This document shows, in pieces, positions 18,211 through 64,000 of a DNA stretch of 64,000 bases; within the stretch, counting starts at the first letter, position 1, and each line of letters starts with the position of its first letter. The notes under the pieces are model-generated. The model searched no databases and was not told the origin of the DNA. It saw only the letters and a program-made list of their open reading frames with translations. The stretch spans positions 4,742 to 68,741 of the forward strand of contig JAZTXB010000047.1 in the NCBI GenBank assembly GCA_045636225.1, read 5' to 3'. Source of the stretch: Bacilli bacterium. GTDB taxonomy: Bacteria; Bacillota_I; Bacilli_A; RF39; UBA660. The translations under genes and the position numbers were made by a program.

Positions 18211-18218
18211 GTGTAAAA

Positions 18219-22628: not shown

Positions 22629-22660
22629 TTGTTGCTATAAAATATTACAATGTTTTTTCG

Positions 22661-22685
22661 AGGTAACAAAAAGGTAACATTTTTT
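22661..22685. repeat. 25 nt direct repeat AGGTAACAAAAAGGTAACATTTTTT (right copy)
   Basis: Identical to 20798-20822. The two copies bracket the two-gene cassette. Confidence 0.7.
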
Positions 22686-22723
22686 CAAATTTAGGTGAAC
22701 TGAAATGGCCTAAATTGGCTTGT

Positions 22724-22757
22724 TAAAGCCATTTTTGACCAGTAAAAGCCATTTTTG
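22724..22757. repeat. iteron-like tandem repeat (T/A)AAAGCCATTTTTG x2, 20 nt period
   Basis: TAAAGCCATTTTTG is at 22724-22737 and AAAAGCCATTTTTG at 22744-22757. Related AAAGCCAAT(G)TTTACAA sequences occur near 22838 and 20843. Confidence 0.5.
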
Positions 22758-22783
22758 TACTATCAAAACAACGAATTTATAAT

Positions 22784-22816
22784 CCCCCTGAAGGAGCCGA
22801 AAGGCTCCATTTTTTT
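22784..22816 (+). repeat. CCCCCTGAAG + GNRA hairpin + T-run module (copy C)
   Basis: CCCCCTGAA, then GGAGCC-GAAA-GGCTCC, then ATTTTTTT. Confidence 0.6.
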
Positions 22817-22877
22817 GTGTTATGCTTTATAAAGCCAATGTTTACAAGGGTTTGCAAGTTTACAACCCAGTTGTATT

Positions 22878-22927
22878 AGGTACATTTTAGGTACCATTTA
22901 GATACTTTTTCTGGTACCTAAAGTACC
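22878..22927. repeat. cluster of degenerate AGGTAC(C) sites
   Basis: AGGTACATTTTAGGTACCATTTAGATAC plus the palindrome GGTACCTAAAGTACC. Related to the att-like repeats at 11883 and 20570. Confidence 0.45.
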
Positions 22928-23052
22928 AAGTCTAGTTTATTAAACCATTATAAATACTGGCTTTAAATATAAAAAAGAGTGCCTTTTGTTCGAATACTAT
23001 GATATAATTAAACTGTTGTTAGCAACGATAACTTAATGAGGTGATTAGTGTT

Positions 23053-24339: not shown

Positions 24340-24365
24340 ACATCTTTTTTCTTATAAACAAACGA

Positions 24366-24397
24366 CCTGAAGACAGCCGAGAGGATCTCATTTTTTT
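24366..24397 (+). repeat. degenerate copy D of the CCTGAAG-hairpin-T-run module
   Basis: CCTGAAGACAGCCGAGAGGATCTCATTTTTTT keeps the 5' flank, the AGCCGAGAGG core and T7, but the stem is broken. Confidence 0.4.
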
Positions 24398-24482
24398 ACT
24401 ATTTATCATAAAATACTATTTATATGTTTAATTTCGTGTTATAATTTTTTTATAAGATAAAATAGTAAGTGAGTGTGATAAT

Positions 24483-34124: not shown

Positions 34125-35729
34125 TTATTTATAATATTCAAGTTCTATTTTACTTGGGCTAACTTCAGTTTCAATCAATATATTATTAAATCCTTGATTA
34201 AGTAGAATATCAGGTAATTCTATATCTTCTTCTTTTCGAGTATTTAAAACTTCTAAAGTACCATCTTCTAATTTTTCTATATATCTAATAACTTTTTGAT
34301 TTTTAAAATCTACATAATCACACATTTCATCTTTACACCTTAAAGGTTCTTTTATATAAATGTTAGCCCTAGAACCTTTATATGATTCATAATGTGTCGA
34401 AACATCATTTTCTTCTAACTGTATATTAGTATATATTGTCTCCACATTTATTTCATTAGGTCTTAAAATAACTACAATAATTTCACAGTTTTCTGGAGTA
34501 ATAAAATTAGTGTGAACAGTATCCGATATATATTCTCCACCTGATGTATAAAAAGCCACTCCAATACTATAAGTTTGTTCTTGGAATATAGAATACTTTG
34601 TATTAGGCTTTACCTTAAATGGAATTCCTATACCATATCCATTTCCAGTAACTTCTAATGTTATCTGCTCATTAGAAACAGAGTATGATTTAACATAGTG
34701 TGGATAATAATAATTATTCATTGTCAACCCAACATAATATTTGTTAAATTCAAAATCCCTTTTATTAGTGTTAGGTCCTCCAGATGATAAAGTTCCTAAA
34801 GTTCTAGTTTGTATATCAAATAAGTTCTTACCACTTACTTTAACTGGTATTTTATATCCATAAGGCTCGTACGATGTTACTTTATTATCTATTTCAAATT
34901 GTATATTTTTTATATAAGCATTTTCTGTTACTCCTCGATAAAGCAAAACTTTACTATCTAGCATTTCCTGGGTACATTCATATACATTACCTTTTATTAT
35001 TGATTTTTTATAAACATCAAGATAAAAATAAGTTACATTACTATTATCTCTCTCAGCATTAGTTTCAAAATTAAAAATAAATTTATCACCTACTTTTAAA
35101 TCAGGACATAAATTACTTAATTTACCTATAGAAAAACCATTTTCAAAATAATCACCCATTATAAATCCATTATAATTATCAACATATATAATTTGTTTCA
35201 TTGTTAAAAGACCCGGACTTATATTCATTATATTAAATAAATTTTTTGTTCTATGTCCTACTTCTTCTTCATTTCCATATATATTATAATCTAATAACTT
35301 TGATTCTTTTGAAGTATTTAAAATTATACTATTTCCTTCAAATACTTTTCTTACTTTATTTTTATTACATACGTGTTTATCCTGTTCTTTATAGCAATTA
35401 TATCCATTTATTACTAAATCTTCATATGTAATAGTTCCAATTTTATCTATTAGTATTTTTCCTTCAACTGAATTCTTTGAATTTATCTCTAAAATTTCTT
35501 CTCCGTTTTTACATATTCCATCATTACATTCAAATACTATGTTTTCTGCTTTTTTTTGATTAGCAAAATATAATTTTGCAGCTCTTTCTATATTTTGCAT
35601 ACTTACTACATTACTATTTTTATTAACATCATCTATTATATTTAATACTATTGGGGTTGCGATTAACGCAATGATTGCTAATATTACTATTACTGCGAGT
35701 AGTTCTATTAATGTAAAACCTTTTCTCAT
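34125..35729 (-). CDS. large prepilin-type N-terminal cleavage/methylation domain protein (534 aa)
   Basis: MRKGFTLIELLAVIVILAIIALIATP is a class III signal peptide (G|FTLIE, Glu at +5). The remaining approximately 500 aa match no recognisable family. Confidence 0.7.
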   Translation of the reverse strand: MRKGFTLIELLAVIVILAIIALIATPIVLNIIDDVNKNSNVVSMQNIERAAKLYFANQKKAENIVFECNDGICKNGEEILEINSKNSVEGKILIDKIGTITYEDLVINGYNCYKEQDKHVCNKNKVRKVFEGNSIILNTSKESKLLDYNIYGNEEEVGHRTKNLFNIMNISPGLLTMKQIIYVDNYNGFIMGDYFENGFSIGKLSNLCPDLKVGDKFIFNFETNAERDNSNVTYFYLDVYKKSIIKGNVYECTQEMLDSKVLLYRGVTENAYIKNIQFEIDNKVTSYEPYGYKIPVKVSGKNLFDIQTRTLGTLSSGGPNTNKRDFEFNKYYVGLTMNNYYYPHYVKSYSVSNEQITLEVTGNGYGIGIPFKVKPNTKYSIFQEQTYSIGVAFYTSGGEYISDTVHTNFITPENCEIIVVILRPNEINVETIYTNIQLEENDVSTHYESYKGSRANIYIKEPLRCKDEMCDYVDFKNQKVIRYIEKLEDGTLEVLNTRKEEDIELPDILLNQGFNNILIETEVSPSKIELEYYK

Positions 35730-45182: not shown

Positions 45183-45206
45183 TTTTTATTTTTTCATTTA
45201 CATTAC

Positions 45207-45229
45207 AAAAAAAGAATCAATTATGATTC
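45207..45229 (-). terminator. terminator ending the long upstream operon
   Basis: On the minus strand, GAATCA-TAAT-TGATTC is followed by TTTTTTTG, just after the lipoprotein gene stop. Confidence 0.65.
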
Positions 45230-45239
45230 CCTTTATAAG

Positions 45240-45575
45240 CTATTTACATTTATATTCATAACTTTCATATTTCTGTTTTATAGATTTTTCATCACCATCT
45301 ATATTTATTTCATCTATAATTTCGGATATTATTACATTCTTTTCTAATCTCAAATTATATTGTTCCTTATATTCTTCTATTTCTTTATAATAATTACTTG
45401 CGCTTATACTATCATTAAAAATCATTTTGTCTACCTGTATTAACGTGTCTTCATCAAAATTAAACACTATTTTATTATTTATTTTTATATCTTCATATTC
45501 TGTTTTATAATTACAAGTAAGCGTATTTGAACAACCACATAAAAACAATAATAATACTAATATTGCTTTTTTCAT
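45240..45575 (-). CDS. small lipoprotein (111 aa)
   Basis: The lipobox LLLFLCGCSN follows a basic N-terminus. This is the last gene of the F1-like operon. Confidence 0.65.
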   Translation of the reverse strand: MKKAILVLLLFLCGCSNTLTCNYKTEYEDIKINNKIVFNFDEDTLIQVDKMIFNDSISASNYYKEIEEYKEQYNLRLEKNVIISEIIDEINIDGDEKSIKQKYESYEYKCK

Positions 45576-45620
45576 TTTATCACCAATTAATAGTATGAAA
45601 AAAGTGCTAATAAATTAACA

Positions 45621-46334
45621 CTAAAATTCTATAAATTCTAAACCATCTATATTTTTTATCAACATATAAAAGGATGTTCCGTATGTAAATGTATCATTAT
45701 ATAAATTTATAACATATTCTTCTGTATATGCTTCTACTTTACCTGTATAACTATCTAGAAATATATATTCCTCAGTTTTATAATTATACATTTTAATATA
45801 ATTATTTGTCACTTCTATAAATGACATTGGAGACAACTCATACTTTTGTTCATTTATAACTACTGTAGTATTCTCTATAAATACATATAAATCTTTACCA
45901 TCATAGAAAAAACAATCATATAGTCTCCCAATACCTGCTTCTGAATTTATATATAAATAATTTTTTTTGGAATACAACTTAGAAAATTTTCCAACTTTAT
46001 ACATAGGATTTTTCCTATAAGGAAAAACAATTTCCATATTATTTGGCATAACTAACAAGCCATCATAATCATTGTAATATATCGGTGTACTATCTAATGC
46101 AACACTATCGTTTTGTATCGATAGAATAGTTTCGTTTACATTAACTGTAACATTACCTTCAAAATCTATTCTATTTGTAGTAAAATAGTAATAAAATTGA
46201 TGAGTTTCACTTTTTACACTACTATAATCATTAATTTCAAAAAATAAAATAAAAGAGCAAATCAATATTAATAGTAATATTATTACAGCAAGTACTGCCG
46301 GACTTACTTTTTTTCCTTTCAATTTATCTAGCAA
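45621..46334 (-). CDS. N-terminally membrane-anchored protein (237 aa), unknown
   Basis: A single TM helix (PAVLAVIILLLILICSFILFF) followed by an approximately 190 aa beta-rich domain. Its start overlaps the upstream gene by 11 nt. Confidence 0.55.
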   Translation of the reverse strand: MLDKLKGKKVSPAVLAVIILLLILICSFILFFEINDYSSVKSETHQFYYYFTTNRIDFEGNVTVNVNETILSIQNDSVALDSTPIYYNDYDGLLVMPNNMEIVFPYRKNPMYKVGKFSKLYSKKNYLYINSEAGIGRLYDCFFYDGKDLYVFIENTTVVINEQKYELSPMSFIEVTNNYIKMYNYKTEEYIFLDSYTGKVEAYTEEYVINLYNDTFTYGTSFYMLIKNIDGLEFIEF

Positions 46335-46850
46335 TTAAATTCCTCCTTACATTTTTATCTTTAGCAACTATTGAAGATAAATTTCTCGCAAAGAAATATA
46401 TAGAACATGCAATTAATATTGCAGATAATATCCATATATAATATTCTACCATTTTAGATTGTCTTACCTCTACCAAAAATAAAGACAATAAATTTAAAAA
46501 ATAAATTATTAAATACTCAGTTACCCCCAACAACAACTCTTTTGTAAACGTAAGTACATTAAAAGAGAAAAATGCATATGTAAAACAAAGTACTAGGAAA
46601 ACATATAAATATAAATTAGAAGAGTCTGAAAGTTTAAATATGCAGTAAATAAGAGTTATTTCCTTTAATATAGCACAAGCAAGCATTATCAAAGAAAAAT
46701 CATCCATACCAGTAAAGAAACCATAAATATTAATAAATTTAAGATTAAATCTACTACTCAAATAATAAAATATAAAAGAAACTAAAGCAATTCCACAAGA
46801 AATAACTAATATAAATTCAACGAGCTGCAATATATAATAAAAAATTAAAT

Positions 46851-46854
<4 letters not shown>
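46324..46854 (-). CDS. polytopic membrane protein (176 aa, approx 5 TM), unknown
   Basis: Five hydrophobic segments. It overlaps the epsilon-like gene by 4 nt. I see no resemblance to subunit a motifs. Confidence 0.55.
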
Positions 46855-49248
<2,394 letters not shown>

Positions 49249-49259
<11 letters not shown>

Positions 49260-50613
49260 TATTTTCCTCTAACACAAATTTAAAACTATTAATTATTTCG
49301 TCTTTAGTTCTAGGAGAAAATTTATATTGATTTAATGTATCAAGTATTCTTTTTCCTTCTTCAATTTTATTTCTAAGATTTCCTCCCATTTCATCAAGAT
49401 TTGCAAATTGATATACATCTTGAGTCTCTAAAAAACTTTGAAGTTTTAGTCTTACAACTGCTCCTAGTTTTTTTATATCATCTGTTTGAACAGCTCCACC
49501 AAGACGTGAAACTGAAAGTCCATAATCAATTGCTGGCTTAAATCCTTTTGCAAATAATTTACTAGATAAATAAATTTGTCCATCTGTAATAGATATTATA
49601 TTAGTAGTAATATAATCAGTCATATCTTCTCCCTTTGTTTCAACAATAGGAAGAATTGTTATTGAACCACCATTTTTATGCTGACACCCCTTTTCAAGTA
49701 ATCTTGAATGAGTATAGAAAATATCAGCTGGATAAGCATCCCTACCTGGGGTTTTTCCAGATACTAAACTTATCTCTCTATATGCTTCTGCATGTCTTTT
49801 CAAATCATCTATAACAACAAGCACATCATGACCATTTTTCATGTATACTTCTGCAATTGATAAAGCCGCATACGGAGTTAACGAAATAACAGGAGGTTTA
49901 TCATCATTAAATGCGCAAACAATTATTGTATACGCAAGTGCTCCTCTCTTTTGTAATTCCAAATAAATATCTTTTACTTCTTTTTTTGTTTTTCCAATAG
50001 CAACATATATACAAAGAACTTTCTTATCTATTTGATTAGCAATTATATCTAAACACATTTGAGTCTTACCTGTTTGTTTATCACCAACTATTAATTGTCT
50101 TTGTCCTTTTCCTATTGGATATATTAAATCAATTCCTGATATACCGGTTTCAAAAGGTCTATCAACACGACCTCTATTCATTATTGATACAGGTTTGTTT
50201 TCAATATTAATTTTAATTAGATCTTCAAATTTTTGATCAGTATATAGATCAGTTCCAAACATATCGATTATTCTACCAACAAATTGATTAGAAAAACATG
50301 TTTTTAAACTTTTTCTTGTTGAATATACTCTATCTCCAACTTTTATCATTTGAGATGTTTTTAAAACTGCAATTATTACAGAATTCTCTAATATTGCATT
50401 AACATATCCAGTTGCATAATTTTCTATATTTACCTGTTCAAAAAAAGCTACTTTTTCTAATCCTGCAACCTCAATAATAAAATTGGTAACCCTTACAACT
50501 CGTCCACTTTCAAATTTGTTTGCGTTTTTGTTTATATTATCAATTTTTTCATCTAAAGTGTCATTAACATAATCACTTACTTTATCTTTTTCATTATTAA
50601 TATAGTCATTCAC
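49249..50613 (-). CDS. F1-ATPase alpha-like subunit (454 aa)
   Basis: GDKQTGKT (vs GDRQTGKT), DDLKRHAEAYR, PGRDAYPADIFYTHSRLLEK, ITDGQIYL and GLSVSRLG. It uses a GTG start with an AAGGATG RBS. Confidence 0.9.
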
Positions 50614-50638
50614 TGTATCACATCCTTTTTATTATTAA

Positions 50639-51385
50639 CTATAAACTATAGTCGTATAAATTACCCTTGTAATTGATTTTTATTCCTTCATTTATTGTTT
50701 CATCATATTCTGTTTTAACCATAGAAGATATATAATCATAACTTATATTTTTCTCCCCAGTATATACATATACTGTAGGATCATTTTTTTCCAATAGTGT
50801 ATCTAACTGTATTATAAAATTATTAACTTTTACATCATCAAGTTTTATATTTTTATTAAGAATATCAATTTCATTATTATCAAGAATACTATATATATAT
50901 TCTTTTTGTTCTTTTTTTTGAAGTTTCATAATCTTATAAATAGTTTTACTATCTAATTTTTTTCTAATACCAGATAACACAATAAACTCTTCGTTTCCAT
51001 CGTCTTCAATTTTATTAACAAAATCTAGTATTATATCAGCCTTATTAAATGAAAATTTTTCTTTTATATTTTTATACTTTTCAAACAAATTTTCATCCCT
51101 ATATTTAGGAGTTACTATTTCTCCATAATATTCTTTTTTGTCATTATAATTAACATTAGTATCAACTTTTGTTTTTTTACTTAAAATCTCTTTATTCTTT
51201 TCTATTTCTTCATTTAATTTATTAAGTACTTTTTGCTTTTCTTCTATTAAATAATCATAATCTTGAAGTTTATCAATAAAATACTTTTTAGTGTTAATAT
51301 CAATTCTCTTAACAGTACTTCTAAGTGAAAAAAACAGAATTGATATTAACGTAAGCGAAACTATAACCGCTACTATATATTCCAT
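50639..51385 (-). CDS. TM + coiled-coil protein, peripheral-stalk (b-like) candidate (248 aa)
   Basis: An N-terminal TM helix (IVAVIVSLTLISILFF) followed by a long charged heptad-like helix. It occupies the slot between c-like and alpha-like where b and delta normally sit. Confidence 0.4.
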   Translation of the reverse strand: MEYIVAVIVSLTLISILFFSLRSTVKRIDINTKKYFIDKLQDYDYLIEEKQKVLNKLNEEIEKNKEILSKKTKVDTNVNYNDKKEYYGEIVTPKYRDENLFEKYKNIKEKFSFNKADIILDFVNKIEDDGNEEFIVLSGIRKKLDSKTIYKIMKLQKKEQKEYIYSILDNNEIDILNKNIKLDDVKVNNFIIQLDTLLEKNDPTVYVYTGEKNISYDYISSMVKTEYDETINEGIKINYKGNLYDYSL

Positions 51386-51386
51386 A

Positions 51387-53070
<1,684 letters not shown>

Positions 53071-53096
53071 ATAAAATTTCTCCTTTTCATGCATTT

Positions 53097-56000
53097 TTAG
53101 TTAAACAACTTTTCATAGCTTATTGGATTTATACTTCCATTTTCAAAGAAAATCTTAATACTCATTTGTTTTACATTTGATACAGGTATCCCATCGTCAT
53201 TGTTATTATTTAGCACTTCGAAAGTATAAACAGTTTTTCCTCGTTCATCTATATGTGACAAGAAAGACAATTCATCTCCCCCTACAGAATTAGAGTACGT
53301 TGCATTTTCTGTTGAATATGTTAACATATATTGTATTTCGCTAATATTATTAAATAACTCTTCGTCTGGTTCTCTAAACATTAGATTAATACTGTTAGCT
53401 AACTTTAGTGTAGACATGTTTAAAGCTGTTGAATTATAAATAATATATGCTGGTTGTTTTCCATCAACAGTTTTTGGGAATACTTCAGATTGCACACCAT
53501 CCTTGCCTTTTACACAATAATTTATTTTTACTGCATAATAACTTTTAACCGCAGCATTACTAAGTTGACTTGTTAAATTTAAACCTGAAGTTTCATTTAC
53601 AAATGGTATTGGTGAATATCCAAGATTTCTTACATTCGTTTTATCATCAAAATTTTTAATATATTTTCCATCTATATTATCTTCAGCTATAGAAAATAAT
53701 TCGAAATAAACAACCTTAGGGATTTCAGAAACATTGAAATACTTCGATATCCTATCTTTATTTTCTTTATCAAAACCAACATATTCAATAGGATTTCCAT
53801 CCTTTTTATCACACGCAACTAACATTCCATCTTCGTCCTGTATTTCTATCTTAAATTCGGGATTAGAAGTATCTTCCACAAAAAATTTTGGTACGTCCCT
53901 AGTTATTTCTATTTCCTTACTCTCAAGTTCTTTATAAACTTTCTTTACCCCATCATAGTCATCTAAATTAAAAACCTTCAATTGTTTTTCCGTACCATCA
54001 TTTTTTTTCAACTTAACCTCTAAATCTAATATATAATTACCTTCTAAATTACTATACGTACTTTGCAAATCAAAAGTCTTATCAATTGATTTTGATTCTA
54101 ATTTTTGAGCATCAGCAAACATTCTTTGGTTTTGCTCACCCTTTTTTAAAATTAAATTATATAGGATTTCTTCACCTTTTTTCAGCTCATAAGTTTCGTC
54201 ATCTACATTCAATTTATATTTTAAATTTTTTGTATATATTATGTCATTGAATTCATTAATCCATTTCCATTTGTTTTTTACTACATTAGCAGAATAATTA
54301 TTAATATATATTCTATCAAGCGAATTGATTGGTAAATCTTCATTATAATTTTTTAAATCAGCATTGTAAGAAGTTTTAAATTCTACTCCGCCAAGAACAG
54401 TACAACCACTTATTGTATATGAATATGTTGAAACATCATCAAACCCATCAAACACTATTGTTACTTTCTTACCTTCATCTACTTTTATCGTTTTTATAAT
54501 TCCACTTTCATTATTCTCATCATTTTCAGATAGATAACTCTCCCACGTACAACCATTAGCATCATCATTACACTGTATTTTGTGAGTTTCAATACCACTA
54601 CCATTCTTTTTTAAAGAAACCTGTAATGCTGTTCCTGCATTAATTTGTTGATTAACGATATCAAAAGATATTGTTGCTCCGGTAGAATTATATATAGTAT
54701 TTATTTCAGTTGTAGCTAAAACAACTTCAACTGTTTGTAAATGTTTTTTCTCTAATTCTATCTCCCATAAAGAAACCTCATTAGAATGAACTAGTTTAGA
54801 TACCGCATTTCCAATTTTCAAATAATTTCCTATAAAATTCTCAGTTACAACCGTAAACCCAGGCTGCTCGAATATCGTCCCTGAAGGTAAACCAGAATTT
54901 GGAGCAAAAATACTATTTTCAGATATATTATCAAATCTTCCAGAATCTTCGGTTCCGGAAAAATTATAATAAATATTTCCACTATGCTGTGTTTGTTCAC
55001 CTAAAACAGCTTGTTTCCAATAATGCGAAGATTTTGTATAATCTACTATCTTTCCAGAATCAAACCAAAGCATAATAGAATTATTTTCAGACAATGTATT
55101 ATCTTCATCAATTTTTAAAACATCCGAAGTTAGTTCAACATCCAAAAACAATTCCTTAGATTGTTCATCTTTTTCAAATTTTCTATAATGTTCATTTATA
55201 TATAATCCTACCACTCTGTCTAAATATTTACTTGGAAACAAATCAGTAACCGCGCCTCGTATATCTTCGTCTGTATATTTAATGCTAAACCTTACGTAAC
55301 CACCATTTGTAGTATCCACGGTTAGAATTTCTGCATCATCACTAATAATAATTACTTCATCTGGATTAAATTCATACATCTTGACTTCTTTTTCGGTTTC
55401 GAATACTTTTTCATATGCATAAAGCGAATACGTTTCATCATTGTTATCAAGACTAAAATTATACTCAGTCCTATACTTATTTTCTTCATCTACAAGGTCA
55501 ACTTTACAACTTGTATTTAAACATATTTTTGTTAAAGCTCTATCTTCATCTTCAATTTTTAATTTAAAGGTAACAGATTTTCCATCATAATCCTTCACAT
55601 ATCCATTTATCTCAGCGCTTTTCTTTTTTCCATAAAAATCTATAGCCTGTGTAACCGTGTTTTTAATTTCTCCATCAACTTCATACTCACCATAATAACA
55701 AAGAAAATATTTTTTTCCTCTAGAATATTTTATTCCGTCATACTCAAGAGAGTCTGAGTATACGTTTGGTCCTGAAGATAAGTTTTCAAAATTATACTCA
55801 ACATCATTACAATAATCTAAATTTAATTGTTCATCAACATAGGCATCTGTTTTATCAGTAACATCTACTATGGAATAATTCAATTTTGTAACATATTGTT
55901 GAGCATCAACTGTACTCGCAGAAGACTTTAATTTAAAATTAAATCCAGTTGTCACTCCATCTCTTTTTATTTCTTCTTTTTCCATAGATAAATATGGAGG

Positions 56001-58796
56001 TAATTCGTTAAATTTTATATTAAATATTTCGCTATCAGTTTCTTTATATTCACCTTCATACTCTTCCTCTATTTCATCTTTAGGTAAAACTACTTTAATT
56101 GGAATTTCATATTCCCTCTTAGAATATCCCTTTATTACAACATGATATTTAAAATCAGAATCGTAATTATCAATTGTATAAGGTAATCCTTCAGCATTCT
56201 CTAAGTCATTTGAATATAATGTAAGTTTTCCTTCATAACCTGCCATTATATGTTCTAACTTATCAAGTTCATCATGATTATCAGGTATTGTACCACTATA
56301 TCCTGTATCTTCACAATTACCATTTTCTCCATCACTGCATCCATATAAAGAAAACTCTAATCTGCCCAATCTTTCATCAGAATTACCACTTTTCTCACTA
56401 TATTTTTGAATATTTATATCGAATACTGCTTCCGGATTATCACTAGGAGTCTCCTTTTCACCATTATCTAATACTAAATACACTGGCATTGCAGTTTCTG
56501 TTCTAACAGTTGTGTAACCCAAATAAATTGACTGAGAACTTCCATTTGCTACTCCATCAATAACACCATCACCATCTGTATCAAGTTCTACATTTTCACC
56601 AGTAGTTAATAATGATACATACAAAGCATATTCTGTATTTGGTATTAGCCCGTCCAAATATACTGGGATAGAAAAATTAGTCCCATCTTTAGGTATATCT
56701 TTCGCAATGATTATTGCCTCAGGACCAGCTTCTCCAGCCACTAAAGCATCATTTTTCTTAATTACAATTTGATAAGAAAAAGCTTTATCGGATGATATAA
56801 AATTTTCTGGGTCAGTTAAGATAATCTGTCCACTTATTAATTCTCCATCAGTATTATTCTGTTCTGATTCAAATTCTACAACTTTTGGAAGTTCAATTCC
56901 TAACGTTACTGAATTAGAATCATTAGATGAAAATATTATTGTTTTTTCGTTATCATCAAAATTTATATTAACATTAAAGTGAATCACTAAATTAGATAAA
57001 TCTTCACTTTCACTTAAGTTAGCAATTTCCCTAAGTTCTTGAAAAGTAAGAACTAGCGGCTCAGAACTATCCTTAGAAACCGTATGCATTAATGGTTCCT
57101 CGTTTTCTGTAGTTATAGATTTATAAATATTATATATATATCCATTAACTCCACCATTTATATCATTTACTCCTTGAACAAAAAACGAAACAACACCCTT
57201 AGTTTCATCCACATTAGTAGACAATTTAACATTATTTTTCTTAAACGGATTTTCTTTTAAAGTTTTTGTCTCATGAGTTAATTTTAATTCTTCATATGAA
57301 ACAGTAGAAAAAGCAACATTTCCATATTGTATTTTCTTCATTACAAAGACATATTCTGTATTAGAATCAAATTTATCTTTTTCTTCAATTATAACAACAT
57401 CGCTATCTCCAAAACTTTTGTCGACACTTTTTACAATAGTATTATTATTTTTATCAATTATTTCATAACTAAAGCCATTTACATCTGAATAAGAATTTTT
57501 ATATACTGCAAACGATAAAGAATCATTTGTGACATAATCATCCACTATTTCTAAACCTATGTCAAGAGTCCTAAAAATTTTTGAAATAAACGTCCTGTTA
57601 TAAACATCTTCATCTATCTTATATTGTCCAGTGACATTTAACGTATATTCAGTATTAGGTTTTAAACTAAAGTACGAATTAATTACATACTCAAGATTTC
57701 CCTCTTCCCACTCATCAAAAATTTGAACAACTCTTCCGGTAGAATTTTCTAGCAATTCGACTTTTCTATTTCCATAAAGTACAGCCGATTCATCAGTAAA
57801 AGAAAATTTTGCATATTCAATTCCCAAAGTTGTAACATCCATACTTACAACTTTAAAAACAGGTTGCTTAACTTCTTCTACTTCAAGTTGTTCATTTTCA
57901 TTTGGAAGTCCTGTCACCAAATTTCCAAGTTCCTCTTGCAATCCTGAATCTATATTGTCTTGTGAATTCCCCGAATTATTATTACCAGTATTTTCTGAAT
58001 TGTTTGGTTGATTATTTAAATTTTCTTCACCACTTTCATCTTTTTCTTCAGGTTGTGGTAAAACTTCTATATTATCATTAGCATTTATAACCATATCAGC
58101 CATAGTTAAATATTCAACATTTTTCTTACTTATAGTTTTATACTCCAAATCTATTTTCACATCATCAACTATTATATATAGATTAGAAGCTATAGTCTGA
58201 TAATTAACTTTATCATTATAAATTCTTATTACATTTTTGCTCACATATTCAATTTCTACATAATCTTCCATTTCAACAGCTTGTTCTCCTGAAAACGATA
58301 CAATTATCTTAGGAGACGCAACTAAATATTTATTATCCGAAATTTTATACATCAATTTAGCAAATGTAATAGTTTTATCTAAATTATCAATTTTATATAC
58401 TGCAGCCTCTTTTCTTAAGACAGAATTTTCAAAAATATTATAATAATTTATTAACTTGGAATCTATCTCATTCAAATCAATTGCAACACCTTTTTTCAAA
58501 GACATAATAGAACCATCCGAATAATGAACAAAACTTTCTTCCGTTATTTCAACTTTTTCACCATTAGAATTAGAAAAAGTATAACCATCCTTATTGTTAC
58601 TTTTATATGAAGTATTTTGTTCAAAATATAATTTATTTATATTACTGTTACCATCACCTAAATTACTTATTATATATCCACTACTAGAAAAATAATTTAC
58701 AGACTTATTTTTATAGTTTATCGCAAACACAAAGCTAACTATCAACATAGTTATTACGATTATAGTAATTATTATAACATGTATTTTTTGTTTCAT
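53097..58796 (-). CDS. giant N-terminally anchored surface protein (approx 1899 aa)
   Basis: One uninterrupted ORF of 5.7 kb. I prefer the start at MKQKIHV (ATG 58796, GGTGAT RBS). Features: TM helix VIIITIIVITMLIVSFVFAI, the acidic/Asn-rich linker EKDESGEENLNNQPNNSENTGNNNSGNSQDN, and a long beta-rich body with no recognised catalytic motif. Confidence 0.75.
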   Translation of the reverse strand: MKQKIHVIIITIIVITMLIVSFVFAINYKNKSVNYFSSSGYIISNLGDGNSNINKLYFEQNTSYKSNNKDGYTFSNSNGEKVEITEESFVHYSDGSIMSLKKGVAIDLNEIDSKLINYYNIFENSVLRKEAAVYKIDNLDKTITFAKLMYKISDNKYLVASPKIIVSFSGEQAVEMEDYVEIEYVSKNVIRIYNDKVNYQTIASNLYIIVDDVKIDLEYKTISKKNVEYLTMADMVINANDNIEVLPQPEEKDESGEENLNNQPNNSENTGNNNSGNSQDNIDSGLQEELGNLVTGLPNENEQLEVEEVKQPVFKVVSMDVTTLGIEYAKFSFTDESAVLYGNRKVELLENSTGRVVQIFDEWEEGNLEYVINSYFSLKPNTEYTLNVTGQYKIDEDVYNRTFISKIFRTLDIGLEIVDDYVTNDSLSFAVYKNSYSDVNGFSYEIIDKNNNTIVKSVDKSFGDSDVVIIEEKDKFDSNTEYVFVMKKIQYGNVAFSTVSYEELKLTHETKTLKENPFKKNNVKLSTNVDETKGVVSFFVQGVNDINGGVNGYIYNIYKSITTENEEPLMHTVSKDSSEPLVLTFQELREIANLSESEDLSNLVIHFNVNINFDDNEKTIIFSSNDSNSVTLGIELPKVVEFESEQNNTDGELISGQIILTDPENFISSDKAFSYQIVIKKNDALVAGEAGPEAIIIAKDIPKDGTNFSIPVYLDGLIPNTEYALYVSLLTTGENVELDTDGDGVIDGVANGSSQSIYLGYTTVRTETAMPVYLVLDNGEKETPSDNPEAVFDINIQKYSEKSGNSDERLGRLEFSLYGCSDGENGNCEDTGYSGTIPDNHDELDKLEHIMAGYEGKLTLYSNDLENAEGLPYTIDNYDSDFKYHVVIKGYSKREYEIPIKVVLPKDEIEEEYEGEYKETDSEIFNIKFNELPPYLSMEKEEIKRDGVTTGFNFKLKSSASTVDAQQYVTKLNYSIVDVTDKTDAYVDEQLNLDYCNDVEYNFENLSSGPNVYSDSLEYDGIKYSRGKKYFLCYYGEYEVDGEIKNTVTQAIDFYGKKKSAEINGYVKDYDGKSVTFKLKIEDEDRALTKICLNTSCKVDLVDEENKYRTEYNFSLDNNDETYSLYAYEKVFETEKEVKMYEFNPDEVIIISDDAEILTVDTTNGGYVRFSIKYTDEDIRGAVTDLFPSKYLDRVVGLYINEHYRKFEKDEQSKELFLDVELTSDVLKIDEDNTLSENNSIMLWFDSGKIVDYTKSSHYWKQAVLGEQTQHSGNIYYNFSGTEDSGRFDNISENSIFAPNSGLPSGTIFEQPGFTVVTENFIGNYLKIGNAVSKLVHSNEVSLWEIELEKKHLQTVEVVLATTEINTIYNSTGATISFDIVNQQINAGTALQVSLKKNGSGIETHKIQCNDDANGCTWESYLSENDENNESGIIKTIKVDEGKKVTIVFDGFDDVSTYSYTISGCTVLGGVEFKTSYNADLKNYNEDLPINSLDRIYINNYSANVVKNKWKWINEFNDIIYTKNLKYKLNVDDETYELKKGEEILYNLILKKGEQNQRMFADAQKLESKSIDKTFDLQSTYSNLEGNYILDLEVKLKKNDGTEKQLKVFNLDDYDGVKKVYKELESKEIEITRDVPKFFVEDTSNPEFKIEIQDEDGMLVACDKKDGNPIEYVGFDKENKDRISKYFNVSEIPKVVYFELFSIAEDNIDGKYIKNFDDKTNVRNLGYSPIPFVNETSGLNLTSQLSNAAVKSYYAVKINYCVKGKDGVQSEVFPKTVDGKQPAYIIYNSTALNMSTLKLANSINLMFREPDEELFNNISEIQYMLTYSTENATYSNSVGGDELSFLSHIDERGKTVYTFEVLNNNNDDGIPVSNVKQMSIKIFFENGSINPISYEKLFN

Positions 58797-58878
58797 ATCA
58801 TCACCTATTATTTTCATTATACAGTTACATTATACCCCAAAATAATACAAATAGCAATCTTTTCAAATCAATTTAACG

Positions 58879-58911
58879 AAAAAAAGAGCTGTATAACAGT
58901 CTCTCTTTTTT
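58879..58911. terminator. weak bulged hairpin flanked by A- and T-runs (possible partial terminator)
   Basis: AGAGCTG-TATAA-CAG(T)CTCT has A7 on the left and T6 on the right. It is the only hairpin inside the 19 kb gene string. Confidence 0.35.
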
Positions 58912-58912
58912 G

Positions 58913-59362
58913 TTATTCACAATGAATATAACTTCTTATAATTCCATCAATTACAGAATCATACTGACTAGGCCAAATAGCGTAAACATATATACCAATT
59001 TCAACTAATTTTATTTGATTATCCTCATATAATTCATTATTAGTATCAATATGATTCTTCAAATCAAACAATTCATTTTCACTTAAGTTTCTTGCCAAAA
59101 TGAAATATTCATTATCCGATTCAATGTTATATGAAAATATATAATCAGTTTCATTCAAAAATCCAATAGGAAGTTTTTCTGAAATTTCTTTAGTTTCTAA
59201 AGAATTAAACCTATTTCCCGTTGCTAAATTTATTTCCAACAAAACTTCCTCTAATTCGAAATCAGCACATTCACTAGGTAATTCTTTTTTAGGAATTAAA
59301 ACTATAAAAATTATTATTAAAACTATTATAGCAACTATTATAATACTTAATTTTTTTTTCAT
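58913..59362 (-). CDS. small N-terminally anchored protein (149 aa), unknown
   Basis: TM helix LSIIIVAIIVLIIIFIVLI. Its start overlaps the GLUG-protein stop (ATGA). Confidence 0.55.
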   Translation of the reverse strand: MKKKLSIIIVAIIVLIIIFIVLIPKKELPSECADFELEEVLLEINLATGNRFNSLETKEISEKLPIGFLNETDYIFSYNIESDNEYFILARNLSENELFDLKNHIDTNNELYEDNQIKLVEIGIYVYAIWPSQYDSVIDGIIRSYIHCE

Positions 59363-62300
59363 ACAGCACCACTCTTTTTTACCAATTTATGTTTAATTAA
59401 TAAGCACAAAGCAACCAAAACAGATACTATAGAAATTGCAAATAATAATATACCACTTAATGATAATTGTTTTTTTCCATTACCAAAATTTGTATAAAAT
59501 TTAACTAATTCATAATTTTGATAAAGCTTTTCTGTTTCAGATTGTACTTCACTAGAATTATCCAACAAAGAAGAAACTTTGTATAAATCATAATTCTTTG
59601 TAAGTTCATTATATACACTAATATATTGTTCTTCTTTTCCTGTCGCATTATTGCTACCATATAGTTTGTCCTTAGCTTGCTCCAACGAAATTTCAGTTAT
59701 TTTCCCCTTTAATATATCCATCTCTTTATATTTTTCTTGTTCAGAAATATTCTCAATAATATTATTCTTAGAAGAATCTCCTATCTTATCCTTAGCAAAT
59801 TCTAAAAACGAAGAATATTTATTTGAAACATTAGTAAATAAAATTGCACCTGTTCTATAGTCAAACGAATATACCGCACCATTAGTATATTTTAATACAA
59901 CATTATTACTAGATGACTTTATATTTGTGTATAATTCAACTATCTCATTATTAATTATATCTTCAGGGTATTTTATATTATTTTTTAAACTATATAATTT
60001 TCCATCTTCTTTTAAAACAATCTGAATCTCATTACTATTATAATAATCTACTATATACATATCCTTTTTATTTTCCAAAGAAGGACTTATAGAACTTAAT
60101 TTTCCATTTTTTAGGAATAACTGCATTTCCTTAACAATTCCATTTGCTAAAGAATAATTATAATATGTATCTATTTTGTTTCCATTATATTCAAACTCAT
60201 ATAATGGTTTTGAATTTTCTAAAATATTATATGTTATATTAGAATCACTTTCATTCCCATTTGATAAATTATATATTTTTCCATCAACTGTCAATACTTC
60301 ATTCCCATATAAATTAACAAAACTTCCATTAATTGCTTTAGCACTGCTATACAATACTTTACCTTGTATATAATAAGTTTCGTTATCTATTATACTTATA
60401 GTTTTAGCCAGTTCTGATGGCTTAACTGTAGATTCTTTATAATTATAACCATTTGTTAAATAAAATTTAATAGGATTTTTAAAATCATATGTTATTGTAT
60501 ATGTTCTTAACTCAACGGGAATATAATTAGACTTATAATCTCCTATTTCATAGTAAAAATATATATTAGTATCTATAGAATCAAATTCTATATTCACCGT
60601 ATTTACACCACTTGCATAAATATCATAATCCATAGTTAATTTATTGTTATAAGAATTTGCATAATTTCTTAACATTTTTGAACTAGATAACAAGGACATT
60701 GATAAACTAATATTTTCCGCACCAGTTCCAGGTAATTGAACTTTATTCTTAACTGATGGATACCCAGAATCGAATATTGGGAAATGCTTATCATCTTCAT
60801 AATTAAACACCGTAGTTGCTGGAATTAAAGTTTGTAATTCAACCAACGAAGAAATTTGAATACTTTCTTTTGTTATGTCTTTTACATATTCTTTAAAATT
60901 ACTTAGCTCCGCAAAAGCATCTTCACTTAACTCATTAGTCCCATATCCCAAAGTTGCTCCTGTTATTTTATTTTCTATTCTTCCAACCAATGGAATACCA
61001 CTGTTTTCAATACTAGAATAGAACAATGAATTTTGGAATTTCTTATCAACGCTTGCAGGAACTTGAGATAAATAACCAATTAAACCACCTGGGTTTGATG
61101 TAGCTCCAACACTAACATCAATAGCTAAATTATTAGAAAAACCAATATTTTGTGAATAAGTATTTCCATTATTTAATCTACCAATGATTCCCCCGACATC
61201 ATTTTCACCAGAAATTTTGGATGATAATACCATATTGCCTTTTATAGATTGAGTTCCCGAAGTTACTTGAATATAATCACCAACTAGCCCACCTACACAA
61301 TCTCCAGTGGCTTTTATTTCAGTCTTTTCTATTAAATTTCCTTCAATTTTATCTGTGGCACTTGTCGTTTGCCCTGCTAATCCACCTACATTAGAACTTC
61401 CTGAAATCACGGAATCAAAAACGCGATTTTTTTGTCCTGTATAAAAATTAAAACCACTAAGACCTCCAACAAATTTTGCATTAAGTGCACTATATAAACC
61501 ATCTTTCTCATTTGCAAAGGTAACCCCCTCTACCTCAATGCCACTATACATTCTAGCATTAGAATATATACCACCTAAATAAGTAATTTGGATTTCACTA
61601 GCATTTGAAATTAATACATTTCTAACTTGGATATTGGAAAAAGTTTGATTTCGTTGCATGTAACCACCTATGCCACCTATATATTTACCAGTAGCAGATA
61701 TTGTACTATTAGTAATACTACAATTGTTTGCACAATCGCCAGCGCCTACTATTCCACCAATATATGAAGAGAGAGAAGATGAGCCGCTAACCGACGACAC
61801 ACTAACATTTGATACGTATATATTCTTCATAGTATATTCTACATAGCCTACTACTCCACCAATTCCAGTAATACCTTCTACTTTTATTTTTTCTGCTATT
61901 ACATTTGTAATCAAAACATATCCAGCTCTGTCTCCAGAACTATAAGCTACTAACGCACCTACATAATTATTTGCCATAACTTCAATATCATCTATTTTTA
62001 CATTATTTATATAACCATAACTAACAGATATAATTCCAGCTTTACTATCAGTAGCAGTTGATGTTATTTTCATGTTAGAAAAATGACAATTTTCTATTTT
62101 TCCATTATTATTTTTAATTAAACTAGCATGCGTACCGCCTTGAATGTTAAAACCTATAAATGCTACATCCCTCATAGTCATAAATAGCTTATCAATTAAA
62201 CTTTCTTTAAAGGTACTATTTTCCTTGAATTCTATAGTATATCCGTTTCCTAATAAATTACCAATTTTTTTAGTTTTACTAACATCAGCATCAAATGAAA

Positions 62301-64000
62301 GCTTACTAGTTAATATAATATTTTGAGGATCACCAGTAGGGATTTCATTCCAATCATCTTGCGACGATATTTTCTTATAAAATTTAGCATCTATTTCTAC
62401 TACGTGTTCTTCCAATGTTTCACTATTTTTAACGTTTAATTTATAAGAACTAAAATAATTTTTAGGTGTTATTTTATATTTGTAATTTTCGCCTTCTAGT
62501 TCTTCAATAGACAAATCATTAGTAGAATAATCTCCTGCATTATCTGAAACAAGTTCATATCCCTCCTCCAATGTAATGATAGCATAATCTGCACTTGCAT
62601 TATTATATAACTCAGGCTGTGTAGAAAGATTTTTACCATTATAAAAATCTATTATTTCATCACTAACGATATCATTATCATAACGATATTCTATACTTAT
62701 TCCACTATTGTCATTTCTTAAATCCTTAAATTTTTCCCCTTTTATCTGTTGTTCTACAAATGAAGCTTCTATTAAATAAGGTAAATCCTCCTTATCTGGT
62801 TCATCGTGGAACGAGATTGCTCCATCAGTTTTATCAAATTGAGTCAAATCAAGATAAAGGCCTCCATCTGGATTTATTATATTTATGGTGTTAAAATCCA
62901 CATCTTGAGGTAATGTATATAATGCATAATTATTTTGTATCTGACTTGCATAAGACCTGCTCGCTGGAATAATTACTGAATAATCTTTTTTTTCATATTT
63001 ATTCACAATTTTTCCTATAAACATATTTCTTTTTACACTATCAGTATTTACCCATCCAGTATCAAGAAAACCAACAATTCCTCCGGCATAACTATTTGAA
63101 TTTATTATGTCCATATAACTATAATTATCCGTTATAGGTGAATAATAGCTTTTTCCCGCAATTCCTCCTACAATATCAAAATCAGTTTCTATAAAGCCAG
63201 TAGAATAACACCTTGTTATATCAGAACTATAAGAATATCCTACTATTCCTCCAATCGCTTTTTTACCATATTCAATATCCATATCTACATTAATATCTAA
63301 ATTATAAACATAACTATTCATAATTTGTGAAGAGTTAAGATAACCAACAATTCCACCTATGTAATTGGTTTTATTAGAACCACTATAACCATCTGTAGAT
63401 TTTTTTATTGTTAAATTATTTATTGATACTTTTTCAATTACTGTATTAGTATTTGAATACGCAATTAATCCACCAATATAAGGATAACTTTCTGACGCAG
63501 ATTTTATTTCAATTTCATAATCTGTTAAATCAATATTATTTATATCAGCATTCGATGCTTCACGTATAAAACCAGAATTGGCAGAAGAAGTTGTTTGAAG
63601 CTTTATATTTTTTACTTGGAAATTTTTCATGACACCAGTAACCCCATAAAAATAATAACCTCTATCTATACTCACTGACTTTAAATCAATTACATGCTCA
63701 TTACCATCTAAAATTGCTGAATAAGTCGTTTTTGATGGTAATCCAGAAGTAAATTCTATATTATTAATCAAACGTATATTTTCATTCCTGTTTAAATATT
63801 TTATAAAATTACCATACGTACCAACATTTCTATACAGTTCAATGTATAATGTTCTCATATTATTGTTATTATATAGTAACGTTTGTTGTCCACCAGCAAA
63901 ATCTTTATAATATACTTCACTGATATTATAACTACTTTTAGCATAATAATTATCATCTTGATTACCAGATTCATCTGTCAAATATAAATCTATAATAACA
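59359..64000 (-). CDS. giant GLUG-repeat (beta-helix-like) surface protein with C-terminal TM anchor; 5' end outside the window
   Basis: The reading frame is open to the window edge. The TTG at 63981 in the ORF track is internal, since upstream codons are sense. There are more than 15 repeats of the (I/V)GG(I/L)(V/I/A)G(Y/F) type (IGGIVGY, VGGIAGK, VGGLAGQ, VGGLVGD, VGGIIGR, PGGLIGY), which is the GLUG motif. The C-terminal helix is LSGILLFAISIVSVLVALCLLI, followed by KHKLVKK. Confidence 0.75.
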   Translation of the reverse strand, partial: VIIDLYLTDESGNQDDNYYAKSSYNISEVYYKDFAGGQQTLLYNNNNMRTLYIELYRNVGTYGNFIKYLNRNENIRLINNIEFTSGLPSKTTYSAILDGNEHVIDLKSVSIDRGYYFYGVTGVMKNFQVKNIKLQTTSSANSGFIREASNADINNIDLTDYEIEIKSASESYPYIGGLIAYSNTNTVIEKVSINNLTIKKSTDGYSGSNKTNYIGGIVGYLNSSQIMNSYVYNLDINVDMDIEYGKKAIGGIVGYSYSSDITRCYSTGFIETDFDIVGGIAGKSYYSPITDNYSYMDIINSNSYAGGIVGFLDTGWVNTDSVKRNMFIGKIVNKYEKKDYSVIIPASRSYASQIQNNYALYTLPQDVDFNTINIINPDGGLYLDLTQFDKTDGAISFHDEPDKEDLPYLIEASFVEQQIKGEKFKDLRNDNSGISIEYRYDNDIVSDEIIDFYNGKNLSTQPELYNNASADYAIITLEEGYELVSDNAGDYSTNDLSIEELEGENYKYKITPKNYFSSYKLNVKNSETLEEHVVEIDAKFYKKISSQDDWNEIPTGDPQNIILTSKLSFDADVSKTKKIGNLLGNGYTIEFKENSTFKESLIDKLFMTMRDVAFIGFNIQGGTHASLIKNNNGKIENCHFSNMKITSTATDSKAGIISVSYGYINNVKIDDIEVMANNYVGALVAYSSGDRAGYVLITNVIAEKIKVEGITGIGGVVGYVEYTMKNIYVSNVSVSSVSGSSSLSSYIGGIVGAGDCANNCSITNSTISATGKYIGGIGGYMQRNQTFSNIQVRNVLISNASEIQITYLGGIYSNARMYSGIEVEGVTFANEKDGLYSALNAKFVGGLSGFNFYTGQKNRVFDSVISGSSNVGGLAGQTTSATDKIEGNLIEKTEIKATGDCVGGLVGDYIQVTSGTQSIKGNMVLSSKISGENDVGGIIGRLNNGNTYSQNIGFSNNLAIDVSVGATSNPGGLIGYLSQVPASVDKKFQNSLFYSSIENSGIPLVGRIENKITGATLGYGTNELSEDAFAELSNFKEYVKDITKESIQISSLVELQTLIPATTVFNYEDDKHFPIFDSGYPSVKNKVQLPGTGAENISLSMSLLSSSKMLRNYANSYNNKLTMDYDIYASGVNTVNIEFDSIDTNIYFYYEIGDYKSNYIPVELRTYTITYDFKNPIKFYLTNGYNYKESTVKPSELAKTISIIDNETYYIQGKVLYSSAKAINGSFVNLYGNEVLTVDGKIYNLSNGNESDSNITYNILENSKPLYEFEYNGNKIDTYYNYSLANGIVKEMQLFLKNGKLSSISPSLENKKDMYIVDYYNSNEIQIVLKEDGKLYSLKNNIKYPEDIINNEIVELYTNIKSSSNNVVLKYTNGAVYSFDYRTGAILFTNVSNKYSSFLEFAKDKIGDSSKNNIIENISEQEKYKEMDILKGKITEISLEQAKDKLYGSNNATGKEEQYISVYNELTKNYDLYKVSSLLDNSSEVQSETEKLYQNYELVKFYTNFGNGKKQLSLSGILLFAISIVSVLVALCLLIKHKLVKKSGAV

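Follow-up and report, generated by a model that had tools for sequence, protein, structure and literature searches.

What work is left for an F1-type ATPase whose gene cluster offers no path for ions and whose neighbours encode giant surface proteins? This question is raised by a 64,000-nucleotide stretch of DNA from a Bacilli bacterium (GTDB lineage Bacillota_I; Bacilli_A; RF39; UBA660; GenBank assembly GCA_045636225.1, contig JAZTXB010000047.1, positions 4,742 to 68,741 of the forward strand). We call this whole stretch the window and count positions from its first letter. Between position 45240 and the window edge it carries thirteen genes, among them homologs of the F1 subunits alpha, beta and gamma and a gene for an epsilon-like protein. 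An initial annotation of the locus suggested that an F1-type head has been recruited here to a surface machine, with the F1-like X0 ATPases of mycoplasmas as the nearest precedent. That suggestion holds up well, as the c-subunit homolog lacks its carboxylate and subunit a was not detected in the cluster. Our answer, to which we give a probability of roughly 0.55, is that the cluster encodes a fourth, apparently undescribed type of F1-like ATPase, which converts ATP hydrolysis into mechanical work on surface proteins.

Three F-type classes are known in Mollicutes, of which Types 2 and 3 have been called mycoplasma-specific (PMC3369863, PMC11864180, PMC12994834). Both of these act on surface proteins (PMC12994834, PMC11864180). 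Literature searches found no description of the present cluster, and the RF39 literature that was found does not discuss ATPases.

The ATPase core and the ion path

The features of the cluster are given below in the direction of transcription, with lengths in amino acids (aa); TM stands for transmembrane, and the number in a name such as p1906 or lipo111 is the length of that protein in aa. Counts of loci refer to 34 related loci that a genome scan (one genome per species) found to carry a beta subunit 59-87% identical to that of the window.

59359-64000, minus strand: GLUG protein, C-terminal part of at least 1546 aa, with C-terminal TM anchor (GLUG motif, 1.6e-8)
58913-59362, minus strand: p149, a small N-terminally anchored protein without homolog in any related locus
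58818-58912, minus strand: intergenic spacer with a strong hairpin and U-run, then a promoter-like site (RNA folding, sequence reading)
53097-58817, minus strand: p1906, giant surface protein with N-terminal TM anchor (homologs in 23 loci)
51646-53094, minus strand: p482, N-terminal TM anchor and beta-rich extracytoplasmic part (homologs in 28 of 34 loci)
51387-51632, minus strand: c-subunit homolog, 81 aa, without ion-binding carboxylate (PF00137, 3e-8)
50639-51385, minus strand: predicted b-delta fusion, 248 aa (Pfam OSCP, hhalign, AlphaFold and Foldseek)
49249-50613, minus strand: alpha-like subunit, 454 aa (PF00006, 1.6e-75)
48471-49259, minus strand: gamma-like central shaft, 262 aa (PF00231, 1.2e-23)
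47095-48468, minus strand: beta-like catalytic subunit, 457 aa (PF00006, 1e-65)
46851-47102, minus strand: epsilon-like protein, 83 aa, beta-sandwich only (position after beta; weak hhalign match)
46324-46854, minus strand: 5-TM protein, 176 aa, about five TM segments, directly after epsilon (position, topology)
45621-46334, minus strand: p237, N-terminal TM helix and all-beta extracytoplasmic domain (in 33 of 34 related loci)
45240-45575, minus strand: lipo111, a putative lipoprotein of 111 aa, signal peptide with LCGC lipobox (homologs only in loci L001 and L030)
45203-45238, minus strand: terminator-like hairpin with U-run after the last gene (fold -9.5 kcal/mol, z -3.7)

The coordinates bear out the layout first described: thirteen consecutive open reading frames (ORFs) run head to tail on the minus strand from the window edge at 64000 to 45240, separated by gaps of at most 45 nucleotides (nt) or overlapping by 4-11 nt, with one spacer of about 95 nt. 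From the GLUG gene to lipo111 the distances are -4, 95, 2, 13, 1, 25, -11, 2, -8, -4, -11 and 45 nt, negative values being overlaps. The G+C content of the window is about 25%. Since TGA is the stop of the epsilon-like and GLUG genes and the long ORFs are intact under translation table 11, the genetic code is code 11. The TM topologies are as first described, and the motifs quoted for alpha and beta, GDKQTGKT and EELSEEDK included, are present and conserved. Pfam recognises only alpha, beta, gamma, c and a GLUG motif; the remaining proteins were assigned to no family.

The canonical proton or sodium mechanism requires a carboxylate in subunit c and an arginine in subunit a. To our knowledge the helix-2 carboxylate is essential in every characterised ion-translocating c-ring. 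When the window c-like protein and 26 homologs are aligned with the c subunits of E. coli and PS3, every one of the 27 shows a hydrophobic or small residue where E. coli has D61 and PS3 has E56, and none shows a carboxylate. Only the protein of locus L006 has an Asp, one residue before this position. A separate alignment to c sequences in PDB places chloroplast Glu61 on an Ala of the c-like protein, whose best PDB match is A. woodii c1 (4bem_J, 1e-8). The latter is itself known for its carboxylate-free hairpin. The carboxylate is thus missing while the protein itself stays strongly conserved, with identities of 54-95% across the family. Its C-terminal FFNP was considered as a docking site of the family and ruled out, since chloroplast and A. 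woodii c subunits end in LLFANPF.

No ORF of the cluster, which is where we searched, matches subunit a (ATP-synt_A, PF00119) in Pfam, and none of 18 members of the 5-TM family does so. Only Met1 is invariant in the alignment of this family, and a conserved arginine is absent. The idea that the 5-TM protein is a divergent a subunit was rejected on these two grounds. An hhalign comparison of the family with supposed a subunits gave an E value of 0.7, which carries little weight, as 14 of the 15 references are c-hairpin fusions. A hydrophobic ORF of 167-189 aa stands at the same position in most related loci, and we regard the 5-TM protein as a candidate membrane partner of the stator that evolves fast. 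Within the 64 kb window no further F- or V-type ATPase genes were found by NCBIfam or by annotation of the proteins. Since the mechanism needs the c carboxylate and the a arginine, and neither is seen in the cluster, the complex, to judge by its genes, cannot be an ordinary ATP synthase or ion pump; its ion path appears to be gone.

The stator is a different matter. The 248-aa b-like protein belongs to a family of which 18 members were compared; each has a TM helix, a short helical stalk, a variable linker and a conserved C-terminal domain that ends in G-I-K-I-x-Y-K-G-x-x-Y-D-Y-S. Several lines of evidence bear on this domain, each of them modest. Pfam OSCP matches two of the 18 members (best E value 7.6e-4). 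A profile of delta subunits from other F-type loci is aligned by hhalign to residues 108-248 (E value 2.9e-5, probability 47%). The AlphaFold model, with a predicted local distance difference test score (pLDDT) of 81.8, consists of a helix at residues 2-73, in which a stalk of about 50 residues follows the TM segment, a disordered stretch at 73-96 and then a helical-plus-beta domain. Delta/OSCP chains or mycobacterial b-delta make up nearly all of the 33 best Foldseek matches of this model in PDB, with E. coli delta (6oqr_W, E value 2.8e-3, probability 0.97) at the top. Because the Pfam matches, hhalign and Foldseek all point one way, we take the protein to be a b-delta fusion, so that both b and delta of the peripheral stalk are present. 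The initial annotation had reported no delta subunit and had seen surface proteins in the place of atpH. In fact nothing lies between b and alpha, p482 and p1906 lie upstream of c only, and delta is fused to the b-like protein. Its reservation that a or delta might be hidden among the ORFs of the cluster proved right for delta; subunit a was not found there.

The place where delta normally docks, an N-terminal extension of alpha, is also kept, since the window alpha aligns to solved alpha subunits from residue 13-20 onwards. Type 2 and Type 3 mycoplasma alphas lack this extension (PMC11864180, PMC12994834). At its other end the window alpha is reduced. The PDB alignments end near residue 441 of about 502, and PF00306 covers only positions 1-64 of 126, so that the C-terminal domain is shortened by about half. 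In eight related loci alpha carries a C-terminal extension of 150-530 aa without Pfam match (e.g. L002:7377-9206, L006:6526-9198, L029:3938-6889). At the arginine-finger position of alpha, the window and most relatives have Lys (KGFKPAI), whereas one subclade has Arg.

In beta, the P-loop, GERSREG, YRF and PADD are invariant across the family. The head as a whole, which the initial annotation called near-canonical, stands at the same distance from canonical F1 as the heads of Types 2 and 3. The window beta is 39-46% identical to canonical betas from three phyla, which are 62-67% identical among themselves; the betas of M. mobile Type 2 and M. enhydrae Type 3 are 38-49% identical to the canonical ones, and window and Type 2 beta share 42%. 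The family is also discrete. Of the 1.84 billion representatives searched, four from the family scored 602-691 bits and all others at most 362 bits.

Placement of the family is based on these pairwise identities and on NCBIfam model scores. Against the canonical models, alpha scores 421.4 (atpA, TIGR00962, cut-off 484.45) and beta 459.0 (atpD, TIGR01039, cut-off 462.85), the latter a near miss. The N-ATPase (alt_F1F0) models give 390 against 750.5 for alpha and 407 against 752 for beta. With the Type 2 models glide_MMOB1660 and glide_MMOB1670 the values are 383 against 600 for alpha and 394 against 850 for beta, and with the Type 3 models 299 against 520 (MSC_0619_alpha) and 393.8 against 570 (MSC_0618_beta). 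Gamma (53.4, cut-off 194) and c (37, cut-off 71) fall far below. No subunit reaches a curated cut-off for a canonical, N-ATPase, Type 2 or Type 3 protein, and the family is a separate one.

The epsilon-like gene keeps its position after beta in 34 loci. Its product was matched by neither Pfam nor NCBIfam, and hhalign aligns it weakly with epsilon subunits over 81 columns (E value 0.017). A length of 83 aa fits the beta-sandwich and leaves no room for the C-terminal helical hairpin. The canonical order of alpha, gamma and beta that was reported for the window is correct there; it does not extend to about 13 related loci, in which beta directly follows alpha and gamma stands after p237.

Surface proteins and their association with the core

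Are the surface proteins more than accidental neighbours? The largest complete one, p1906, has a TM segment at residues 8-37 and no Pfam family; homologs of 1235-2016 aa, together with a 280-aa fragment in L025, stand at the same position in 23 loci. The extracytoplasmic part of p482 is beta-rich with a Gly/Ser/Asn linker. NCBIfam gave no match for it, and Pfam only a sub-threshold hint of fn3. Its homologs are found directly upstream of c or of p237. Of the six loci without it, five are contigs cut short and L018 lacks the gene. The ORF of the GLUG protein (TM segment at residues 1510-1541) is open to 63999 and, as had been noted, runs beyond the window. Twelve loci have GLUG homologs of about 2200-2820 aa, mostly downstream of p237; the one in L002 contains an ALK/LTK glycine-rich domain (6.5e-42). 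Homologs of lipo111 turned up solely in the two closest loci, so we do not count it as part of the core. Neither Pfam nor NCBIfam recognised a protease or MIB/MIP-like family in any cluster protein.

The AlphaFold model of p237 is confident (pLDDT 89.8) and all-beta behind its TM helix. A Foldseek search of PDB with this model gave no significant match (best E value 0.035, TM-score at most 0.22). In four loci p237 and the 5-TM protein are fused into one protein of 383-410 aa (L011:2735-3967, L013:11669-12880, L014:4350-5501, L032:2346-3578). This fusion argues that the two proteins act together. The four loci have 35-46% G+C and are labelled Lachnospiraceae or Clostridiales.

The window proteins were compared by BLAST with all ORFs of the 34 related loci. 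The records of these relatives (25-46% G+C) are labelled uncultured Bacilli, 'Mycoplasma sp. CAG:472', Mycoplasmatales or Erysipelotrichaceae, and also Lachnospiraceae or Clostridiales. The samples came from human, rabbit, chicken, horse, rumen and digester. A named relative, Candidatus Pelethosoma, is placed by NCBI in Mycoplasmatota incertae sedis, and we take the cluster-bearing genomes to belong to RF39 of GTDB. The locus had been set apart from mollicute genomes that read UGA as Trp. This is right as far as the code is concerned, but the organism itself is a relative of mollicutes, as the names 'Mycoplasma sp. CAG:472', 'Mycoplasmatales bacterium' and Candidatus Pelethosoma indicate.

At least one giant protein is encoded in 27 of the 34 related loci, so the linkage to giants, whose absence from all relatives would have told against the initial proposal, is widely kept. 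The seven loci without a giant match comprise five contigs cut short, L017, which has an 894-aa ORF without BLAST match at the position of p1906, and L018, where the order is a 252-aa protein, c, b-delta, alpha, beta, epsilon, 5-TM and gamma. Gene order varies elsewhere too. Some loci have p237 between p482 and c, three have c upstream of p1906, and the GLUG gene is usually downstream of the core in relatives, not upstream. The association of ATPase and surface protein genes persists through several rearrangements and one gene fusion.

Whether all thirteen genes share a transcript is less certain. The terminator reported after the last gene is real. The internal hairpin in the spacer, which had been called weak, is the stronger of the two on RNA folding (58872-58912; -12.4 kcal/mol, z -4.1). 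Next come a U-run and a promoter-like site, TTGCTA-17-TATAAT (58857-58829). A consensus terminator scan flagged neither hairpin, owing to the low G+C (the terminal stem has two G-C pairs), and folding confirmed both. Given the strong hairpin, the U-run and the promoter-like site, GLUG and p149 are probably transcribed apart from the unit that runs from p1906 to the lipoprotein gene. What had been presented as one 19 kb operon is therefore probably two transcription units.

Comparison with known systems

Type 3 (MSC_0618/0619, partner of MIB-MIP) resembles the window cluster in that F1-derived alpha, beta, gamma and epsilon are clustered with membrane or surface proteins of unknown fold, in hosts from the same wider lineage of wall-reduced Bacillota. 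It is believed to convert ATP hydrolysis into work on surface proteins (PMC3369863, PMC12994834). Its own gene order is a 12-TM protein, a small cytoplasmic protein, gamma, epsilon, an 87 kDa membrane protein, alpha and beta (PMC12994834; M. enhydrae locus). Type 3 has no c-like protein, no TM-anchored b-delta and no N-terminal helix on alpha, whereas the window cluster keeps all three. The window cluster in turn lacks the 12-TM protein, its partners are different and far larger, and a MIB or MIP gene is absent from it.

The Mycoplasma enhydrae locus (L057:2269-11017, table 4) encodes proteins of 503, 167, 311, 159 and 711 aa, followed by an alpha (609 aa) and a beta (459 aa), which is the textbook order of Types 2 and 3. 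Alpha, which has Leu at the arginine-finger position, and beta were identified by similarity, and the first five proteins by position only, as the 12-TM, small cytoplasmic, gamma-like, epsilon-like and large membrane protein. Hidden Markov models (HMMs) of our accessory families gave only noise against the table-4 translation of this locus, in a comparison of little power in which gamma, too, went undetected.

Type 2, the G1-ATPase of M. mobile, is likewise an F1-like motor thought to drive giant surface proteins. In its partners Gli349 and Gli123 the TM segment is N-terminal, in Gli521 C-terminal (PMC7052211; bioRxiv 10.1101/2022.09.07.507039), and the same division is seen between p1906 and p482, anchored N-terminally, and the GLUG protein, anchored C-terminally. 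MMOB1620 (GliD) has been hypothesised to come from a b-delta fusion and MMOB1610 from a fusion of 'a and c' (PMC7052211; GliD also PMC11864180). What is a hypothesis of origin for GliD appears in the window cluster as an actual b-delta fusion. Other features are Type 2's own. Its beta has an N-terminal dimerisation domain of about 300 aa, an extension lacking in the window beta of 457 aa; together with PGK the motor builds chains in the cytoplasm; GliD lacks a TM segment, and a c-like protein is absent. Its Gli genes, tagged MMOB1020-1040, lie well away from the ATPase genes MMOB1610-1670 (PMC7052211).

With canonical F1Fo (atpIBEFHAGDC) the window cluster shares homologs of c, b, delta, alpha, gamma, beta and probably epsilon in the same order, and the catalytic residues of beta are intact. 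It differs in the absence of subunit a and of the c carboxylate, in a delta fused to a short b, in a short epsilon and in the truncated C-terminus of alpha. The features of N-ATPases, namely AtpQ, AtpR and an a subunit, were not found in the cluster by Pfam or NCBIfam.

Two of its oddities have counterparts in known synthases. Mycobacterial b-delta is a natural variant of the stalk, and M. smegmatis b-delta chains are among the Foldseek matches of the window protein; A. woodii c1 is a c hairpin that lost its carboxylate. Both of these occur in complete ion-translocating synthases with an a subunit, unlike the window cluster. In the A. woodii ring other hairpins keep their carboxylates, whereas the only c-type gene of the window cluster is without one.

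A further atypical F-type cluster (L040-L062) is found in records labelled Saccharibacteria, Patescibacteria, Daviesbacteria, Parcubacteria or 'uncultured Gammaproteobacteria', whose betas are among the top-scoring ones outside the family (P0201). It encodes a protein of 265-295 aa (e.g. L040:5545-6363, L041:5601-6467) that begins with a signal or TM segment, continues with about 200 aa of extracytoplasmic domain and closes with a c-like hairpin, which has a GRNPLA loop but no carboxylate. Behind it come the genes for b, delta, alpha, gamma, beta and a short epsilon. The hairpin matches the window c family in hhalign with a probability of 92.5% (E value 4.8e-7). These clusters resemble that of the window in the lack of an adjacent a subunit, in the short epsilon and in the carboxylate-free hairpin. 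They differ from it in that the hairpin is fused to this N-terminal extracytoplasmic domain, separate genes encode b and delta, and adjacent giant genes are absent.

What the complex may do

How might such a complex work? The cluster holds a complete set of F-type rotor genes (gamma, a short epsilon and c) and, as we read it, a complete peripheral stalk (b-delta and the N-terminal extension of alpha). In the reading that we prefer, a fourth type of F1-like ATPase, beta would hydrolyse ATP and turn gamma, epsilon and the c-ring. The stator would be formed by alpha3beta3, b-delta and a unit of the 5-TM protein and p237, the latter two taking the place of subunit a in the membrane. Because ions cannot be carried, torque or cyclic strain would cross the membrane and act on p482, p1906 and the GLUG protein, setting them in motion or cycling them through conformations, which may serve surface motility, catch-and-release adhesion or surface remodelling. 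Parallel models are the Type 2 motor of M. mobile, which is believed to drive the 'legs' Gli123, Gli349 and Gli521, and the proposal for Type 3 (PMC12994834). The overlaps of 4-11 nt between neighbouring genes, which suggest translational coupling, also count in favour of this reading.

A more specific version can be put forward, which we hold only tentatively. Here the complex would be a transmembrane rotary drive: the c-ring, free of ion sites, would serve as a mechanical rotor or shaft, 5TM-p237 and b-delta would be the stator in place of a, and torque would reach giant adhesins that span the wall. The complex would then be a living intermediate between F1Fo and Types 2 and 3. That a mycoplasma-related lineage with a TM-anchored b-delta and a carboxylate-free c represents such an intermediate is plausible, because GliD and MMOB1610 have themselves been hypothesised to derive from b-delta and a/c fusions. 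The 12-TM proteins, too, have been proposed to come from a/c fusions.

Several points weigh against a surface-acting motor. The coupling between the ATPase and the surface proteins is read from synteny alone. We know of no demonstration that a carboxylate-free c-ring rotates. The Lys at the arginine finger of alpha may mean slower catalysis. The model of p237 resembles no solved structure in Foldseek, and in the low-power HMM comparison no similarity was detected between the accessory proteins and those of Type 3. The strong internal hairpin sets GLUG and p149 off from the remaining cluster, and one locus, L018:6916-13741, has the ATPase core without p482 or an adjacent giant gene, although it is the only exception that can be evaluated. 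Finally, predictions give most RF39 a peptidoglycan wall (PMC10868615), which sets them apart from gliding mycoplasmas.

The strongest rival, which we nevertheless consider unlikely, is an engine for export or assembly. If the ATPase energised a one-time insertion, secretion or wall-crossing of the giant proteins, as FliI/FliJ do in type III secretion, the same synteny with very large surface proteins would be expected. Alpha and beta do match the FliI/SctN models of NCBIfam at 1e-58 to 1e-62, and F1-like hexamers with a gamma-like shaft are well established in flagellar and injectisome protein export (PMC11864180). But the giants have ordinary N-terminal signal-anchors or C-terminal tail-anchors, within reach of Sec and YidC, and Pfam and NCBIfam found no homolog of an export gate in the cluster. 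An export engine would need neither a c-ring nor a membrane-anchored b-delta stalk, both of which are conserved here. The retention of ring and stator stalk therefore favours sustained torque over one-off export.

Could the locus simply encode the ordinary, perhaps the only, F-type ATP synthase or ion pump of the cell in a rearranged form? Subunit a would then be encoded elsewhere or be too divergent to be recognised, the c-ring would bind ions in an unconventional way, and the surface genes would be there by accident. We think this improbable. In its favour, the seven subunits compared above are present in canonical order in the window, beta narrowly misses the atpD cut-off, GenBank records of family members name it 'F0F1 ATP synthase subunit beta', and an atpB gene in the rest of each genome would have lain outside our search, which covered the ORFs of the cluster. 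A conserved His and Ser near the start of c helix 2 might even be taken for the unconventional site. Yet the helix-2 carboxylate is missing from all 27 members of a strongly conserved c family, the cluster ORFs show neither an ATP-synt_A signal nor the conserved Arg, gamma and c are far below their equivalog cut-offs, the epsilon-like protein is too short for the regulatory helices, and about half of the C-terminal domain is missing from alpha. Moreover, several rearrangements and a gene fusion in 34 species have not parted the surface genes from the ATPase genes.

It is just as doubtful that two unrelated units adjoin, a degenerating F-type remnant and a surface-protein island: the hairpin and promoter-like site that split off GLUG-p149, the GLUG gene on different sides of the core in different loci and the lack of adjacent giant genes in L018 would agree with this, but invariant catalytic motifs and the c identities kept over 25-46% G+C speak for purifying selection and not decay, neighbouring reading frames overlap, and p482 and p237 stand in among the ATPase genes, p237 being found between p482 and c, after the 5-TM protein or fused to it.

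Elsewhere the window contains housekeeping genes, an integrase and helicases, with hrcA, grpE, dnaK, pepF and dnaJ downstream of the cluster. A few other loci deserve mention. A protein of 534 aa (34125-35729, minus strand) has a prepilin-type N-terminal cleavage/methylation domain (ComGC/ComGD-like) and is unusually long for a pseudopilin. Four consecutive genes at 988-8216 (minus strand), for proteins of 338, 421, 615 and 1048 aa, have no NCBIfam match. A tyrosine recombinase gene (11906-13021) is closely followed by a block of plus-strand genes (about 14.5-27 kb) in which the GC skew inverts. The block holds a PtuA-like ATPase (18219-19628) and a helicase IV-like protein (24483-27077). The block within 11906-27077 may be an integrated element or a defence island.

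What would follow for the organisms that carry the cluster? If the name 'F0F1 ATP synthase' on beta is taken at face value, metabolic reconstructions will probably credit them with an ion-pumping synthase that this locus, as we read it, cannot provide. If the complex is a surface-acting motor, the principle of F1-like mechanical work would extend beyond mycoplasmas to a large group of uncultured Bacillota from gut, rumen and digester that use the standard code. With its retained c-ring and membrane-anchored b-delta, the complex would supply a concrete evolutionary intermediate for the derivation of GliD from b-delta that has been proposed. Should the more tentative idea of a transmembrane rotary drive be true, abundant uncultured gut bacteria would possess a previously unknown machine for motility or surface actuation. 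The cluster would in any case be a natural instance of an F-type rotor and stator kept without an ion path, in which it becomes testable what rotary ATPases can drive besides ions.

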